From IMG/VR virus record IMGVR_UViG_2541047885_000016: DNA of 32,971 nt, one strand, 5' to 3'. The position numbers were made by a program, and so were the translations under genes. Numbering within the stretch: position 1 is the first letter of the stretch; every line of letters starts with the position of its first letter. The stretch is from a virus. Lineage: Duplodnaviria; Heunggongvirae; Uroviricota; Caudoviricetes. Shown here in pieces: positions 2,619 to 10,969 of the stretch. Below the pieces are notes generated by a model. That model was not told the DNA's origin. It made no database searches and was given only the letters and a program-made list of their open reading frames with translations.

Positions 2619-3209
2619 ATGTCTCGAATTTTTGCTTACTGTCGGATATCAACGCTGGATCAGACCACCGAAAATCAACGCCGGGAAATCGAAAGTGCAG
2701 GTTTTAAAATCAAACCTCAGCAAATAATCGAAGAACACATTAGCGGCTCAGCAGCAACCAGTGAGCGTCCTGGTTTTAACCGGTTGCTTGCTCGCCTGAA
2801 ATGTGGTGATCAATTGATTGTGACAAAATTGGATCGCCTTGGTTGTAATGCAATGGATATCAGGAAAACAGTGGAACAACTGACCGAAACAGGTATCAGA
2901 GTGCATTGCTTAGCATTGGGGGGCATTGACCTGACCAGTCCAACAGGAAAAATGATGATGCAAGTAATTTCAGCAGTCGCTGAATTTGAACGAGACCTTT
3001 TACTTGAACGCACTCATTCCGGGATAGTAAGAGCCCGGGGCGCAGGGAAACGTTTTGGTCGACCACCTGTGTTAAATGAAGAACAGAAACAGGTGGTATT
3101 CGAACGGATTAAGTCAGGTGTAAGTATAAGTGCCATTGCCCGGGAATTCAAAACCTCGCGGCAAACCATTTTAAGAGCCAAAGCAAAACTTCAGACACCT
3201 GACATATAA
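2619..3209 (+). CDS. pin: serine recombinase, Pin/Gin/Hin-family DNA invertase
   Basis: 196 aa; N-terminal resolvase catalytic motif YCRISTLDQ (active-site Ser10); C-terminal helix-turn-helix region ([19 protein letters not shown]); typical invertase length. Confidence 0.9.
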
Positions 3210-3436
3210 AAAATAATCTCGGTGTGAGATGCTTTACGTCTTCCAAGCCCCCTTCCTTGCCGTAAATGGAAAGATACATCTAATTATAGAATTTATATGT
3301 TTTACCCTACGGCAGTGCTGGCCATTCAATATCCTGTGCAGTTGACGTATCAACACGGTTCAGCAACACCCGATACTTTTTCCTGGCTTCCAGCAACGGG
3401 GTTTCTTCCTCCGTTGCATATACAGCTCACCTTTTT

Positions 3437-3730
3437 TCACCCACGATTAACCAACAGCCAGATCAGCAGACACGCCACCACCGGCACAGCAAAATCCATC
3501 AGGCTTGCCACATCCCAAACACGCGGATCAAAACCGCCCCACCACGGCATGTTAATCCGCTTGCCATGCCCGAACATTTCAATCCAGCGATATTCTGCCT
3601 GGGTGTGTTCACGCGCAATGAAGAACGTACAACCAGCTATCGCCCCATAAGCCCAGTTTCCGGTAAAAAGACCAACCAGTGTCTGCGCAGCCACAGCACA
3701 AAGCGCATGAAGAAAAGGTGTTATATCCAT
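3437..3730 (-). CDS. 97-aa hypothetical integral membrane protein, last gene of the tail-fibre operon
   Basis: Strong RBS (AAGGAGGAG a few nt upstream of ATG at 3730); hydrophobic segments at about residues 5-39 and 75-94 with a Trp-rich loop (MPWWGGFDPRVWDV); 10-nt gap to the upstream gene; no family recognised. Confidence 0.55.
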   Translation of the reverse strand: MDITPFLHALCAVAAQTLVGLFTGNWAYGAIAGCTFFIAREHTQAEYRWIEMFGHGKRINMPWWGGFDPRVWDVASLMDFAVPVVACLLIWLLVNRG

Positions 3731-3740
3731 TACTCCTCCT

Positions 3741-4445
3741 TTATCTAATATCGCTTCGGGAAGTTAATAACAACTTTAATTCTGACTCAAGTTCATCAAC
3801 TCTTTCAGTCAGTTTCTGGATATGGTGAATCAGTGGAACAACCAGACGTTCGTACATTACACCTTCGGCAACAAGGCCATTGCTGGAAATAGCTTCAGGA
3901 GCATCATCTTCGTTAGCTGGTCGCCAGTGTACAAACTGAGGAGCAATTTCTCCTACTTCCTCGGCAATCAATCCGTAGAATCCCCAGTCACGCCTGTCAT
4001 TTTCGCATTGCGACCTGTACCACACAGGGCGCATCCTGAAAATGAGATCGGCGTGCTCTGAATCTATTGTCTCTACTGAATGTTTATAGCGGATAGACGA
4101 TGTTGACCGCAGCACAGACGAAATTGCACGGTCAGGATTAAGATAAAGGTTTGCCGCCGCTGTAGTCGTGGCCAAATTCCATAAATAAAACGCTTCACGA
4201 CCTGTCAGTGGATAAAAATCTCCGCCATAACGACCACTTTCCAGATCGTTCACTTCCACTTTGTTTTTCAGCTTATTATCAACTTCAGTTTTTGTGTATC
4301 TGGAGCTGATATCCTGCTTTGCACTGGTCATCTCAGTCTGAAGCGTTGATACTTTTCTGCTAATTGATGAAATATCTTCCTTAGCTTTACTGACATCCCC
4401 CTTTAGCTTGGTGATATCTCCTGGAATTACTGTCGATGTAGCCAT
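3741..4445 (-). CDS. 234-aa tail-fibre-like protein: N-terminal coiled-coil segment plus C-terminal domain resembling the peptidase S74 intramolecular chaperone of tail fibres/spikes
   Basis: Heptad-like N-terminus (GDITKLKGDVSKAKEDISSISRKVSTLQTEM...); C-terminal pattern SSIRYKHS...GFYGLIAEEVGEIAPQFV...GLVAEGVMYERLVVPLIHHIQKLTERVDELESELK fits the S74 chaperone-domain pattern as I recall it; domain assignment from memory only. Confidence 0.55.
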   Translation of the reverse strand: MATSTVIPGDITKLKGDVSKAKEDISSISRKVSTLQTEMTSAKQDISSRYTKTEVDNKLKNKVEVNDLESGRYGGDFYPLTGREAFYLWNLATTTAAANLYLNPDRAISSVLRSTSSIRYKHSVETIDSEHADLIFRMRPVWYRSQCENDRRDWGFYGLIAEEVGEIAPQFVHWRPANEDDAPEAISSNGLVAEGVMYERLVVPLIHHIQKLTERVDELESELKLLLTSRSDIR

Positions 4446-4454
4446 TTTCCTGCC

Positions 4455-4736
4455 TCACATCCAGCCACGAAGTTGATGCTCAACAACAACCGCGTATTTA
4501 TCGAATATTGACGATTTTTTTGCATCATTAATGATGCGCACGTTTACAAAATATCCGTCTTCCTTAACACATACCGGCTCGCCATCTTCAGTAAGTTCTC
4601 CGGTTTCTTTGTACACGTTACCTATCACGTCAATAAGAATATCATCCTGCATCGACTCGTCATCATAATAGCCAGCACTCTTCATAAAGGCCGAAAAGTC
4701 GGCCTTGTCTGTGAATTTGATAATTAAATCTCGCAT
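4455..4736 (-). CDS. 93-aa acidic hypothetical protein translationally coupled to stf
   Basis: Start codon overlaps the stf stop (ATGA at 4736); acidic composition; no hydrophobic segments; no family recognised. Confidence 0.55.
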   Translation of the reverse strand: MRDLIIKFTDKADFSAFMKSAGYYDDESMQDDILIDVIGNVYKETGELTEDGEPVCVKEDGYFVNVRIINDAKKSSIFDKYAVVVEHQLRGWM

Positions 4737-7114
4737 TATATTATCTCTCCCATTTGCGCATCGGTTAATTCTTTATGCCATATTCTAAAATTCCTGATAT
4801 AACCAAATAAATGACGTAAGCCGGCTGTAGTCTGGCCTCCAATCCTTATACCTGTAGCACCACTAACACTCTTCCACGTTGTTGATGCTGGTGTTGATAA
4901 AACCCCATTGCAGCCAGCCTGAAACTTGCCGTCGCTTTTTATTCTATATACAGCGATAATCTTTCTTGGGTAATTTCCAGGTGGAAATGATATTGGATTA
5001 CCAAATTGAACATATGGAGTTCCTACACTACCTGCTGTATTTCTGAATGCAAAAACAAAAGCGTCGTCTTTTGTTTTAAATCCTGTTATATCATAAATTC
5101 TAGGCGCGGAATTTGGTGCTATAGACCAATTTTTATTCACTTCAACCATGCAGGTTAAAGGTTTGCTGGCCATGTTATTTTTACAAGGCAATGTAACAAT
5201 ATCGCTTGCTCGCGTTGATGCAACTGTATCGGAAATGATAAAAGATGATGCGCATGAGCCGCCTTCAAATTGTGGTGTCGTAACATCCAAACATTCCCCG
5301 CCCAAATAAGTTCCAGGTGAAACAGGTGGAGCAATTTGGATCTGAGAGCCAACCATATTATCAATAGCTTCAGATTGATATGTAACCTCGAAATAAATCC
5401 ATCCATTAGATTCTTTCTCCGCTCGGGCGGTTATTCTTGCAGCCCCTCCTCCCGTTTTCCTAATGGACATATCTGTTATATTAAGATATGCATCTGCCAG
5501 ATAAAAATATGCGGACCCGTCATATCTTTCAAATCTTATACGACATTGTATATTAGCACTATCGCTTTTTACACGACATGATGTTGTAACATACTTTTCA
5601 GTTCCAGTAACATCGACACCTCTTCCTCCTGAAACCGCAGCGATATTCATTGTCGTATTTGTCCCAATTTTTTCGTCCTTTATTTGAAACCGCCCATAAG
5701 TAAAGCCAAACTCATCAACACCACTTTCTGTTATAGTTACACTTGTTGTAGCTCCCCACTTAGATGGCGTAAGTGAATTAAGATGATAGTTGGTTCTTTG
5801 TCCTTCAATCAGCAAACCTTCTCGTTCAAATCGCGGTTCGTCAACTTCAGCAACGGTTAATACTCCTGATTTATTAATGTATGTTGCACCTGATGCGCGT
5901 TTGAAGCTAACAACCTTATCGGATGGCATTTTAATAACATCATCACCTACAGTTATTTGCTTATAACCAGGCGAAAAGCCAGCAAGCATATCCAGTGAAT
6001 CGTTAAACGGTATCCACACATCGGGAAGCGGCTGCAAAACTTGTTTATACGGCTCCGCAGCCTGGCTTGCATACTCTCTGGCTGCGTCTTCACTTGCTTT
6101 TGCAGCCGTCTGGCTTGCAGCGGATGCTTTCGCCGAGTTAGCCGCCGCAGTCTCGCTCGCCTTTGCGTTGGTTTCACTGGTTTTTGCAGCTTTTTGACTG
6201 TTGGCTGATGCAGTGGCAGAAGAAGCCGCCGCACTTGCAGAACCAGCTGCGGCACTCTCGCTTTGGGCCGCTGCATCCTGACTGTTTTTCGCCGCAGTTT
6301 CGCTGGCTTTGGCATTCGTTTCGCTGGTCTTCGCTGCCGTCTGGCTGGACTTTGCGTTAGTTTCACTCGTCTTCGCTGCTTTCTGACTGTTAGCCGCAGC
6401 AGTTGCTGATCCAGCTGCTGAAGTCGCAGAACCGGCTGCCGCGCTCTCGCTTTGGGCTGCTGCAACCTGGCTGTTTTTTGCCGCAGTTTCACTGGCTTTG
6501 GCATTCGTTTCGCTGGTCTTCGCTGCCGTCTGGCTGGACTTTGCGTTGGTTTCGCTCGTCTTTGCGGCTGTCTCGCTGTTTTTCGCGTTGGTTTCTGATT
6601 TTTTGGCTGCTGTCGCGGAGTTTGCCGATGCAGTCTGTGAGGTCGCTGCCGCCTGTGCGCTGTTAGCTGCATTCGTTTCTGAGGTTTTCGCCGCGTTCTT
6701 CGATGATGCCGCTGCAGTTTCGGATTTCTTTGCCGCCGCTGCGCTCTGAGAGGCGGCTTCGGCGTTGCGTGCCGCTTCTTCCACCATTTCCTCAAAACGG
6801 CGCAATGCCTCCGGCATGACATCATCTTCCGTCATGGCACCGAGAAAATCATTCAGCGTACCTGGTCTGGAACCTTCATAGACGGTAATGGTCCCGGCAT
6901 GTGAAGGCGGAAAACCTTCAACCAGCAGGGTGACGCTGTACTGGCCATACTCAACATCCATGCTGTAACGTCCGGCTTCATCCGGATTTTCAGAAGCCAC
7001 CGTGTTCACCAGTACCGTGGTGCTGTTACGCTTTGCCTTCAGTTGAATAGTGCAGTTCTGTATTGGTTTTCCCGCACCATCTTTCAGCACACCTGAGATT
7101 TTTACTGCTGCCAT
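4736..7114 (-). CDS. stf: side tail fibre protein Stf: lambda-like N-terminus and Ala/Ser/Thr-rich repetitive shaft, non-lambda C-terminal region
   Basis: N-terminus MAAVKISGVLKDGAGKPIQNCTIQLKAKRNSTT... matches lambda Stf as recalled; preferred start ATG at 7112..7114 (track extends to a GTG at 7120); GGAG RBS; C-terminal ~450 aa differ from lambda and end ...FGYIRNFRIWHKELTDAQMGEII. Confidence 0.9.
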   Translation of the reverse strand: MAAVKISGVLKDGAGKPIQNCTIQLKAKRNSTTVLVNTVASENPDEAGRYSMDVEYGQYSVTLLVEGFPPSHAGTITVYEGSRPGTLNDFLGAMTEDDVMPEALRRFEEMVEEAARNAEAASQSAAAAKKSETAAASSKNAAKTSETNAANSAQAAATSQTASANSATAAKKSETNAKNSETAAKTSETNAKSSQTAAKTSETNAKASETAAKNSQVAAAQSESAAAGSATSAAGSATAAANSQKAAKTSETNAKSSQTAAKTSETNAKASETAAKNSQDAAAQSESAAAGSASAAASSATASANSQKAAKTSETNAKASETAAANSAKASAASQTAAKASEDAAREYASQAAEPYKQVLQPLPDVWIPFNDSLDMLAGFSPGYKQITVGDDVIKMPSDKVVSFKRASGATYINKSGVLTVAEVDEPRFEREGLLIEGQRTNYHLNSLTPSKWGATTSVTITESGVDEFGFTYGRFQIKDEKIGTNTTMNIAAVSGGRGVDVTGTEKYVTTSCRVKSDSANIQCRIRFERYDGSAYFYLADAYLNITDMSIRKTGGGAARITARAEKESNGWIYFEVTYQSEAIDNMVGSQIQIAPPVSPGTYLGGECLDVTTPQFEGGSCASSFIISDTVASTRASDIVTLPCKNNMASKPLTCMVEVNKNWSIAPNSAPRIYDITGFKTKDDAFVFAFRNTAGSVGTPYVQFGNPISFPPGNYPRKIIAVYRIKSDGKFQAGCNGVLSTPASTTWKSVSGATGIRIGGQTTAGLRHLFGYIRNFRIWHKELTDAQMGEII
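6188..6565 (-). repeat. tandem in-frame duplication (2 x 189 bp, 63 codons) within the stf shaft region
   Basis: The DNA block GCCGCAGTTTCGCTGGCTTTGGCATTCGTTTCGCTGGTCTTCGCTGCCGTCTGGCTGGACTTTGCGTT occurs at about 6291 and again at about 6480 (189 bp apart); the protein repeats AKTSETNAKSSQTAAKTSETNAKASETAAKNSQ.AAAQSESAAAGS twice. Confidence 0.75.
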
Positions 7115-7124
7115 ATCCACTCCA

Positions 7125-7151
7125 CAAAAAAGCCCGCCTGAACCGGCGGGC
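7125..7151 (-). terminator. intrinsic terminator-like hairpin downstream of lom
   Basis: GC stem GCCCGCC/GGCGGGC (7132..7151) followed on the minus strand by a U6 run (7125..7130), between the lom stop and the stf start. Confidence 0.5.
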
Positions 7152-7178
7152 TGTCATAACACTGTGTTACCTGGCTAA

Positions 7179-7778: not shown

Positions 7779-7847
7779 AATTACCTCTCGCTTTTCTGCA
7801 ATAAAAAAGGCACCATTTCTGGTGCCCTTATATGGGTTATAACAATT

Positions 7848-8168
7848 TCAACGAATACTGATGCCGGAAGCGGCTTTTTTGGTCACAATCACCGTACAGT
7901 CGGTGATATTACCTGCCCGCTGATTGCCTTTATGGAAAACCTTAAACTCCAGAGTGACGCTTCCCCTGCCACTCGGCATATCAATAACCGCACTGTAGCT
8001 ACCGGGAATGGCCCCTTTAGTTTCTCTGGATGCGATTAATACACCGTTGCCGGTGGATTTCCACCACTGGTAATGGTCGGGGCCGTCAGGCGTTTCAGGA
8101 ACACGTCGTTCATGAATATCTGATCGCCCTGACCAACAAACATCGGTTTTGTGTTGCCATTCGCAGGA
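7848..8168 (-). pseudogene. out-of-frame remnant of the J C-terminal receptor-binding region
   Basis: A frame +1 relative to J is open from 8168 to the stop at 7848..7850; its last ~60 codons (...GAIPGSYSAVIDMPSGRGSVTLEFKVFHKGNQRAGNITDCTVIVTKKAASGISIR) resemble the extreme C-terminus of lambda J as recalled (...IVDMPAGRGNVILTF...VMVIKKQALGISVV); the upstream part of that frame is junk-like. Confidence 0.55.
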
Positions 8169-10969
8169 TTAACCATCGCAATCCTGTCCGCCGCCAGCAG
8201 CACCTGACTCTGCATGCCGTCAGGGGTGTTCTCAATACCGGCACCAATACCCGCGATATAAAGGCGTCCGTCCTGCATCTGCTGCAGCTTCACAGCCCAC
8301 ATGCTGTTCAGGTTATTATTTGTATCAACCTGAACCTTCTGTATCTGCTGAATTGCCGCACTCTGGTCTTCCAGTTTCTTATTGACGGTCTGCGTGATTT
8401 CATTGCTGACATGCGTAATGGACGTCCTGATTTCAGCCAGGTCAGGCGCAAGCTGACCGTTATCAATCTGCGTCCACAGCTCCTGAGCCAGATGGGTTTT
8501 CCCTATCTCGCCTTTGAAAAAATCCAGATAACCGGATGCATCATCACTCGGCTGACCAACAGCCTCCACGAATGCCGATTTGCCGACGGTGTTCACACTG
8601 CGAACGTAAAAATAATAATCATGGCCCGGTTTGATATTGATACTGGCAGCTATCCAGTACAGCGCCGTACCAAGATAGCGGGCTGTGGTTTCAACCTGCC
8701 TGATATCCGCAATCCGCTTTTCCGAGAACCAGAACTCAAACTGTACCGTCGGATCATAAACGGCAAGATGCGGCGTTGCGGTTATCTGAAAATAGCCCGG
8801 CGTCAGCTCAATCCGCGACGGTGCTGCCGGTGCGGCAATCCGGAACGATACCGATGCCGGATCGCCCTGCTGCCCCCAGGCATTTGCCGCCCGGACTGTC
8901 AGCCTGTAGTTTCCCAGCGCCAGTTGCGTGAAGCGGTATGTGGTTTCCGTCGTCCGGGCCGTGCTGACCAGCCGCTCACTGCCGTCGTCTGCTGCCACAG
9001 TCAGGCGAAGCATAAAGCTCACACCCTTCACCACCTTCGGCGTGTCCCATCGCGCCAGCACCTGATATTCCCCGCTGTCTGCAGTGACTTCGGCGGTCAG
9101 ATGCTGCACTGCTGGCGGCGTGACACCATTCACCGTGCCGCTCTGGTCACCGTCAAAGTGCGCCCCGTTATCCACGATGGCCTCTTTCTCCGGCACATGC
9201 TGCACGGCAGTGATGGCATACGTGCCGTCGTCGTTCTCACGGATACTCACGCAGCGGAACAGGCGCTGGCGCAGCGTCGGCAGCTTAAGCCCCCACACGC
9301 TGTATTCAGCAACACCGTCAGGAACCCGGCTCACTTTTACCTTCACGCCGTCGGTGACGGACTGAACCTCCACGCTGACCGGACTCCCCTGCCCGTCAAC
9401 CAGGCTTATCAGCGTGGTGCCGGAGGCTGGCAGCGTGATTTCACGGTCGAGCGTCAGTGTCCGCGTCTGGCTGTTCACCGCCAGCACGCGCCCACCGGTG
9501 CTGATGCCCGCATAGTCATCATCGCAGATTTCAATGACATCGCCCGGTACATGGCGAAGCCCTTCGGCACCCACGCTGAAGTCCACGGTCTGCGTTTCCA
9601 GCAGTTCTGTTTTAATCAGCCACAGCCCGGCTCGGTGCGCCTGCCCCCGACTGGTACAGCCAAACGCATCCATCTTCGTGACGTTACGACCGTAACGGGC
9701 AATGGCCTGCGTGTCCTCCACAAGCTCTGTCGCCGTCTCCCAGCCGTTATCCGGGTCAATCCAGTTCACCTCAACGGCATTATGGCGGTCCTTGAGGGCG
9801 CTGAAGCTGTAGCGGAACGGCGCGCCATCATCCGGCATCACCACATTACTGCGGTTATAGGTCCACACCTTATCCGACGGCCGGTCCTGCACGAACGTCA
9901 GCGTCTGCCCGTTCCATACCGGCATACAGCGCATCGCCGAGCAGAAATCACTGAGCACATCCCACGCCTTGCGCTGTGTGGTCAGGTACGCATTACAGGT
10001 GATGCGCGGCTCCGTGCCGCCAAAGCCGTCCGGCACTGACTGGTCGCAGTACTGGCCGATGACATACAGCGCCCATTTGTCCACATCCGCCGCACCAAGA
10101 CGTTTCCCCATGCCGTAGCGTGGATGGGTCAGCATATCCCACAGACACCAGGCCATGTTATTGCTGTATGCTGGCTTAAACGTTCCGTCCCAGATACCGC
10201 TGTATTGCCGCGTCTGCGGGTTATAGTTCGACGGCACCTGCAGAATGCGCCCGCGAAGATGATAATTACGGCTCACCTGCTGGCTGCCGAACTGCTCCGA
10301 GTCCACCTGCACGCCGACCAGTGCCGTGTTCGGGTAGCACTGTTTCACATCGATGATTTCTGTGTATGACGACCAGAGCGTTTTGTTCTGCAGCTGGTCT
10401 GTGGTGCTGTCCGGCGTCATCCTGCGCATCCGGATATTAAACGGGCGCGGCGGCAGGTTATCCACCACCACCGAGGCCAGATACTGCGACGTGGTTTTGC
10501 CCTTAATGGTGATGTCTTTTTCCGTCACCCAGCCACCGTTACGCTGTATCTGAACCAGCAGACGGACTTCCGACGGATTCCTGTCACCCTTTGAGGTGGT
10601 TTCCACCAGTGCCTGCACACCGAAGGTAAAGCGCAGACGGTCGATGTTTGCAGACGTGATGGTCCGGGTAATCGGCGTGTCGTACTTCACTTCCGTACCC
10701 AGCACCGTCTCGGAGCCGGAGGATTCAAACCCCTCCGGCGGTGTCTGCTCCTGCTCACCTGCCCGGAACACCACCGTGACGCCGGAGATATTGGTATTCC
10801 CCTCACTGTCCAGCACTGGCGTACTGTTCAGCAGCACACTTTTTAATCCGTCCACCGGACCTTCAATCGGCCCTTCACTGATGGCGTCTATCACGCTCAG
10901 CATCTGGGATGATTTCAGGTTGTCCTTCGCTTCGCGCGGGGTATGCCCCTTACTGCTGCCTTTACCCAT
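8036..10969 (-). CDS. J: tail tip host-specificity protein J, C-terminally truncated
   Basis: 976-aa ORF collinear with lambda J from [20 protein letters not shown]... to ...[23 protein letters not shown], then 3 codons and a stop; lambda J is 1132 aa from memory. Confidence 0.9.

Follow-up and report, generated by a model that had tools for sequence, protein, structure and literature searches.

A stand-alone 234-residue fibre protein with an S74 chaperone domain as the third gene of a mobile tail-fibre module

Results

The tail-fibre locus and its surroundings

The window, i.e. the whole stretch of 32,971 nucleotides analysed here (IMG/VR record IMGVR_UViG_2541047885_000016, Caudoviricetes), matches the prophage at ydfJ of E. 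coli B and C strains. Its minus strand carries a compact group of four genes (Table 1): stf, a 93-codon gene whose start overlaps the stf stop, a gene of 234 codons beginning 9 nt further on, and a gene for a hydrophobic protein that follows after another 10 nt. The 234-codon gene, hereafter termed the mini-fibre gene, was read directly from an ATG start to a TAA stop, and its Shine-Dalgarno region overlaps the TGA stop of the 93-codon gene. This agrees with a preliminary description of the locus, which had listed a separate open reading frame with its own start and ribosome binding site; the same arrangement as separate frames was found in other phages (see below). Public records disagree on a name. 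PGAP assigns "tail fiber domain-containing protein" (WP_000235975.1), other entries read 'chaperone of endosialidase' or 'lateral tail fiber chaperone', and the BASEL annotation is 'putative lateral tail fiber chaperone'. A literature search for this short family returned no paper that goes beyond such database labels, and PADLOC gave no match for the mini-fibre, the 93-aa or the 97-aa protein.

Table 1. Features of the fibre module, ordered by position in the window
Feature	Coordinates	Strand	Description and basis
97-aa hydrophobic protein (phrog_1443)	3437..3730	-	last gene of the module in lambdoid prophages
Mini-fibre gene	3741..4445	-	705 bp, 234 aa; ORF list and annotation
S74 intramolecular chaperone domain, residues 116-234	3744..4100	-	Pfam, invariant residues, fold matches, 8hqz match
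Lys121 codon	4083-4085	-	
Ser116 codon	4098-4100	-	
Strand-rich short tip, residues 63-115	4101..4259	-	ends at predicted scissile Thr115; homology to Stf-type fibre ends
Heptad-repeat helix, residues 9-62	4260..4421	-	putative trimeric coiled-coil shaft; AlphaFold2 and heptad register
N-terminal motif, residues 1-16 (MATSTVIPGDITKLKG)	4398..4445	-	putative docking peptide; identity with distal-fibre N-termini
Shine-Dalgarno region of the mini-fibre gene	4448..4456	-	GAGG at -11..-8, AGGA at -6..-3; read from sequence
93-aa partner (phrog_1361)	4455..4736	-	function-unassigned protein; homologues in 181 phage records
Stf, proximal side tail fibre, 794 aa	4736..7120	-	Pfam phage_tail_N 5-134, NCBIfam GTA_spike_fiber 437-638

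Stf itself lacks a chaperone domain. Residues ~105-350 of its shaft (6060-6800, minus strand) form a long Ala/Ser/Thr-rich repeat (AAKTSETNAKxSETAA...), whose composition yields several long spurious open reading frames on both strands, for instance at 5953-6825 (minus strand). The 93-aa protein is a full-length phrog_1361 member (profile positions 1-92 of 92). Neither this protein nor the 97-aa protein had a match in Pfam or NCBIfam, and a profile of ten homologues of the 93-aa protein found nothing in the PDB (best E 0.56); its AlphaFold2 model, built from a shallow alignment, reached a pLDDT of only 53.5. The 97-aa gene directly follows the 93-aa gene in phages 4A7 and PhiR40_1 and is absent from T1-like loci; its hydrophobic product may be a membrane moron.

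Inside the module, promoter-like and terminator-like sites stayed within chance expectation, which is compatible with its co-transcription with stf. Between lom and stf a strong terminator-like hairpin was found at 7131-7152 (minus strand; 8 pairs, 7 of them G-C, followed by TTTTTTG), and expression of the fibre module would therefore require either late transcription with antitermination or a separate promoter. No inverted repeats that would mark a Pin-invertible segment were detected around the mini-fibre gene. Next to the module, at 2619-3437, the pinQ invertase gene (196 aa, plus strand) lies beside a tail fibre assembly gene of which only 36 codons remain; pinQ is an orphan invertase, left once the fibre module had displaced an older stf-tfa pair. 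On the other side, the host-specificity gene J (7779-10969, minus strand) is broken at its 3' end. The frame of 977 aa stops after ...GGNPPATVY, and the last 66 codons of the normal J C-terminus lie out of frame at about 7851-8048, which implies a deletion of ~127 codons from the receptor-binding end. Given this disruption the prophage is probably defective, its fibre module being intact nonetheless.

The C-terminal half is an S74 chaperone domain preceded by a coiled coil and a short tip

The Pfam family PF13884 (Peptidase_S74) matched residues 116-172 over model positions 1-57 of 58 with an E value of 3.9e-6 and 27.5 bits, the family cut-off being 22 bits. The match starts precisely at Ser116, in the context RSTSSIRYK, with Lys121 five residues further on, and both residues are invariant among 27 homologues with identities down to 27%. 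In the same set, inspected for a counterpart of Arg1250 of T5 pb1, the arginine of the neighbouring subunit that senses correct folding, N99 is invariant and R113 nearly so; from the monomer model neither is assigned to that role. The structures closest to the AlphaFold2 model are the chaperone domains of MyRF, the K1F endosialidase, the GA-1 neck appendage and T5 pb1, and at the sequence level the domain matches residues 953-1068 of DT57C LtfA in PDB entry 8hqz. As the profile match is significant, the Ser/Lys pair invariant and the fold neighbours are solved chaperone domains, the S74 assignment is confirmed. The preliminary description had placed a putative domain of this kind at about residues 115-234 and had named the profile search and the Ser-Lys dyad as checks; both turned out in its favour, and so did the fold.

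In T5 pb1, the cut between Thr1263 and Ser1264 requires Lys1269 and a correctly formed trimer, and receptor binding is masked as long as the chaperone domain stays uncut (PMC4690869). The scissile context of the mini-fibre parallels this site, with Thr115 before Ser116 as Thr1263 before Ser1264.

For the part preceding the domain, coiled-coil-like sequence over some 115 residues had been proposed; this holds for residues 9-62, which comprise six heptads, but not for residues 63-115, which form a strand-rich tip. The AlphaFold2 monomer model predicts helices at residues 9-49 and 52-62 and is confident for residues 120-234 (pLDDT 75-96), while the tip stays below a pLDDT of 50. The a/d positions of the heptads are occupied by I/L, V/A, I/I, V/L, M/A and I/R, and homologues differ in length by whole heptads: that of P0003 is without DVSKAKE, and that of orkinos is longer by 21 residues. 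For a host-range determinant the tip would be unusual, being conserved rather than variable across homologues. No receptor-binding domain is recognisable between the N-terminal motif and the chaperone domain, where there are only the coiled coil and ~50 residues; this interval has no similarity to the middle of IrisVonRoten Gp24 or to the ~240-residue tip of JakobBernoulli Gp36.

The mini-fibre gene is the third gene of a module that recurs across phage groups

A trio of fibre gene, ~92-aa gene and S74 protein gene was found in the lambdoid phage IdasGreatGrand, the T1-like phages KarlJaspers and swan01, the T5-like phages IrisVonRoten and T5_ev219, and the Nonagvirus JenP1. The form with three separate frames for a fibre, a protein of 93 aa and one of ~230 aa was seen again in lambdoid prophages, in one lambdoid phage isolate and in virulent phages of the T1-like group. 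The 93-aa gene lies directly downstream of a fibre gene in all listed rows and at every locus inspected. Each of the eight loci that were compared also pairs it with a proximal fibre that has the homologous ~440-aa C-terminal domain. In PhiR40_1 and in CarlMeissner, an rV5-like phage, this pair is present with no S74 protein downstream, and the third gene of the module is therefore an optional add-on. A comparison of the number of genomes with the 93-aa gene (990) and with the S74 gene (746) as a sign of this optional nature was dropped, because search sensitivities differed and one inspected case had both genes. Altogether, the mini-fibre gene is the third gene of a mobile module composed of proximal fibre, 93-aa protein and distal fibre.

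These comparisons also bear on whether the mini-fibre is merely the 3' part of a longer fibre gene, either interrupted by a frameshift or translated together with the 93-aa frame into one protein. The two frames are indeed in phase, with only the TGA and 9 nt between them (4446-4457), and this spacing is identical in IdasGreatGrand, IrisVonRoten and JenP1, though it amounts to 12 nt in swan01 and differs in KarlJaspers. No evidence of read-through between them was seen. In KarlJaspers the two genes are in different frames, the 93-aa protein is a stand-alone family that also occurs without a downstream S74 gene, the MATxT start of the mini-fibre coincides with the N-terminus of all longer relatives, and a Shine-Dalgarno sequence stands ahead of its ATG. 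We consider a longer gene extremely unlikely. The preliminary description had named a frameshifted longer fibre gene as an outcome that would speak against its proposal; with three separate frames across lineages, the mini-fibre is not the 3' part of such a gene.

The gene is widespread and under purifying selection

The mini-fibre gene was detected in 746 of 5,426 complete E. coli genomes (14%) at 93-100% nucleotide identity, including the laboratory strains BL21 and REL606, in prophages at no fewer than three chromosomal sites. When 40 E. coli records were sampled evenly down the match ranking, the match covered the full 705 bp without gaps in 38. The gene is moreover present in ~50 phages, lambdoid as well as virulent T1-like ones; homologues of 221-269 aa with 56-66% identity occur in virulent T1-like phages and related contigs. 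Among five alleles, dN/dS was 0.13-0.29 overall, 0-0.24 in the tip and 0.05-0.28 in the chaperone domain, with higher values in the coiled coil.

Such figures have to be set against the view that the mini-fibre arose by deletion from a longer distal fibre of the JenP1 gp25/Gp24 type and has no function, having lost the receptor-binding domains and being carried along with the module. It does keep only the two ends of the longer fibres, namely the motif on one side and the tip with the chaperone domain on the other; it is frameshifted in several T1-like phages, and defective prophages retain it. Yet the low dN/dS, most of all that of the tip, the ungapped matches in nearly all sampled E. coli records, frames that are intact between lambdoid and virulent T1-like phages at 56-59% amino acid identity, and length changes by whole heptads that preserve the coiled coil are not what a decaying passenger would leave, and we judge this explanation quite unlikely. 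From the low dN/dS, the wide conservation and the whole-heptad length changes we conclude that the mini-fibre gene is a real gene on which purifying selection acts, most strongly on the tip and the chaperone domain, and neither debris nor the tail of a broken gene. A fragment left by recombination, one of the three readings offered by the preliminary description, is contradicted by the same selection and conservation.

In three independent T1-like isolates, Warwickvirus orkinos, JLBYU19 and AV105, the mini-fibre is split into two frames by a run of six C instead of five. The extra C lies at Tyr-Pro codons (TTTTACCCCCCT; in orkinos at L015:3225-3235, and likewise in L018 and L019) and could reflect a shared true frameshift, repeated slippage or a sequencing artefact. 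The split gene means that the mini-fibre is dispensable at least there, that is for two of these isolates, which were propagated on K-12 derivatives.

A shared N-terminal motif and mosaic relationships

Residues 1-16 are identical at 10-15 of 16 positions to the distal-fibre N-termini of IdasGreatGrand, KarlJaspers, swan01, IrisVonRoten (Gp24) and JenP1 (gp25), and they conform to the consensus M[AV]TxTxIPxDITxLK. In the comparison with Gp24, the mini-fibre N-terminus MATSTVIPGDITKLKG and its counterpart MVTKTVIPTDITKLKN share 12 of 16 residues. The Gp24 N-terminus is present in full length in 61 further phage records, nearly all of them T5-like. Two PHROG tail-fibre families, 4563 and 19752, align with no more of the mini-fibre than residues 1-32 and 1-31, at profile positions 1-32 and 1-31, respectively. 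Neither this shared motif nor the association with the 93-aa protein was part of the preliminary description. JenP1 gp25, a protein of 351 aa that ends in an SDRDLK chaperone domain, has the same N-terminal start. In IrisVonRoten, Gp24 is a 'T-shaped' fibre of 574 aa that carries two receptor-binding domains and, at its C-terminus, a chaperone domain, and an AlphaFold-Multimer model has it attached to the proximal fibre Gp22 (PMC11990801).

The C-terminal 440 aa of Stf (window 4736-6060) are 77% identical to Gp22 of IrisVonRoten (L004:3614-6004) and only 55% identical to the corresponding part of IdasGreatGrand, whose 93-aa and mini-fibre genes reach 87% and 94-97%. Because the end of Stf is thus nearer to a T5-like phage and the next genes are nearer to IdasGreatGrand, a recombination boundary is placed by these identities at the stf/93-aa junction, the exchange having taken place between temperate and virulent phages. 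In other E. coli prophages, Stf proteins that are long and in one piece carry the same tip-chaperone end, with 55-60% identity over residues ~44-234, and are without the motif; judged from these alignments, the tip-plus-chaperone cassette has clearly been exchanged by recombination. The mini-fibre keeps both ends of these distal fibres, the motif as well as tip and chaperone domain, with a coiled coil in place of the receptor-binding middle.

Discussion

A proposed minimal self-processing distal fibre

We propose that the mini-fibre is a minimal distal fibre which uses its chaperone domain to trimerise, cleaves its own chain at Thr115-Ser116 and attaches to Stf, and we regard this as somewhat more probable than not. 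In this mechanism the S74 domain would bring three chains together and template its own N-terminal half, that is the folding of the tip and the zipping of the six-heptad coiled coil. Once the trimer is complete, the Ser116/Lys121 pair would cut the chain and the chaperone domain would depart, so that the mature product would be a trimer of ~12.5-kDa chains. Residues 1-16 would then dock this trimer on the distal end of Stf, possibly together with the 93-aa protein. The domain, its catalytic pair and its fold, the heptads, the selection, the synteny and the shared motif are directly established; trimerisation, cleavage, docking on Stf and the role of the remaining stub on the virion are what we infer from them. 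The invariant cleavage site argues for self-processing, as such a site makes sense only in a protein that cleaves itself. A very short auxiliary fibre was among the readings offered by the preliminary description, and it fits best.

With ~50 residues before the cut, compared to ~240 in Gp36, and a conserved tip, the stub may serve as a small secondary adhesin that recognises a conserved target, or simply as a structural cap. Virion proteomics say little here: for swan01 only five proteins were detected, all encoded outside the fibre locus, and the mass spectrometry of SECphi27 covered one gel band.

The same features invite another explanation, in which the mini-fibre would act in trans on Stf as an assembly chaperone or transient cap, its S74 domain helping to trimerise or mask another polypeptide and leaving no lasting fibre. 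Its gene lies downstream of a fibre gene, the usual place of assembly chaperones, and several phage records annotate it accordingly; Stf lacks a chaperone domain, and the classical tfa nearby is only a remnant. The mature part is also devoid of a receptor-binding domain, and in T5 pb1 the uncut domain masks receptor binding. But PhiR40_1 has a proximal fibre of the same type (53% over the C-terminal 440 aa; 51% by BLASTP) and the 93-aa protein, and manages with no S74 protein, and CarlMeissner, in which the C-terminal domain is 38% identical, shows the same arrangement. Moreover, T5-like phages fill the slot with a genuine structural fibre bearing the same N-terminal motif, and the mini-fibre carries its own substrate together with an invariant self-cleavage site. 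To our knowledge, action in trans is not documented for any S74 domain; a literature check on this point returned no statement for or against it. A trans-acting chaperone for Stf, as suggested in the preliminary description, is weakened by the loci without an S74 protein, the genuine fibres with the same motif and the invariant cleavage site, and we hold it to be rather unlikely.

Related to this, and unlikely in our estimation, is a role other than adhesion in which the mini-fibre would be the first S74 protein working in trans, as a small detachable assembly factor or cap seated by its motif on the proximal fibre and controlling folding or the exposure of a lectin-like end. If so, the prophage copy could even occupy the docking sites of superinfecting phages, given that the motif is common to T5-like, T1-like and Nonagvirus phages.

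Implications of a small S74 protein and a shared docking motif

If the mini-fibre is a minimal distal fibre, its value lies partly in its size. S74 domains are usually studied on fibre or spike proteins of 350 to ~1,400 residues, whereas the passenger here has ~115, and the whole protein is small enough to be expressed, mutated and crystallised as a minimal model for chaperone-templated trimerisation and self-cleavage. Furthermore, the 16-residue motif and the 93-aa partner may constitute a plug-in interface for swapping distal fibres on one type of proximal fibre, which would be used by lambdoid, T1-like, T5-like and Nonagvirus phages and could be useful for host-range engineering.

Comparison with known systems

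T5 pb1, a protein of ~1,400 aa, has a bullet-shaped receptor-binding domain of ~290 residues before its cut, whereas the mini-fibre has only ~50 residues there, is encoded by a gene of its own and starts with an N-terminal motif of its own. K1F endoNF endosialidase and the ICA domain of MyRF resemble it in fold and in the catalytic Ser-Lys pair; their passengers are large enzymatic or DNA-binding parts, in contrast to the ~115 residues of the mini-fibre. Lambda Tfa, Mu U and T4 gp38/gp57A are likewise encoded downstream of a fibre gene, but they act in trans, do not cleave themselves and have no sequence or family relation to the mini-fibre, among whose Pfam, PHROG and NCBIfam matches there was no family of the Tfa type.

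Among lateral fibres, DT57C LtfB starts with MSRPLMPKSG instead of the motif and branches from a different proximal fibre, LtfA; DT57C has no 93-aa gene, and an N-terminus of the LtfB type is absent from the mini-fibre. JakobBernoulli (Bas07) Gp36 and RuthEpting Gp29 share the order of coiled coil, tip and self-cleaving chaperone domain (PMC11990801), but Gp36 is a single fibre of 741 aa anchored directly to the virion, with a far longer tip, no 93-aa partner and no MATxTxIP motif. The closest counterpart is Gp24 of IrisVonRoten, whose gene likewise follows those of a homologous proximal fibre and a homologous ~92-aa protein, and which shares the motif and the C-terminal chaperone domain. It differs by its two receptor-binding domains, in the place of which the mini-fibre has a coiled coil. 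Compared with distal subunits of the Gp24/JenP1 gp25 type, the mini-fibre thus agrees in synteny and motif and departs in the receptor-binding domain, the position in T5-like phages and Nonagvirus being held by receptor-binding fibres of 351-574 aa with the N-terminal motif of the mini-fibre. S74 domains, T5-like tips and branched two-part lateral fibres are already established, and what is added here is their short stand-alone variant.
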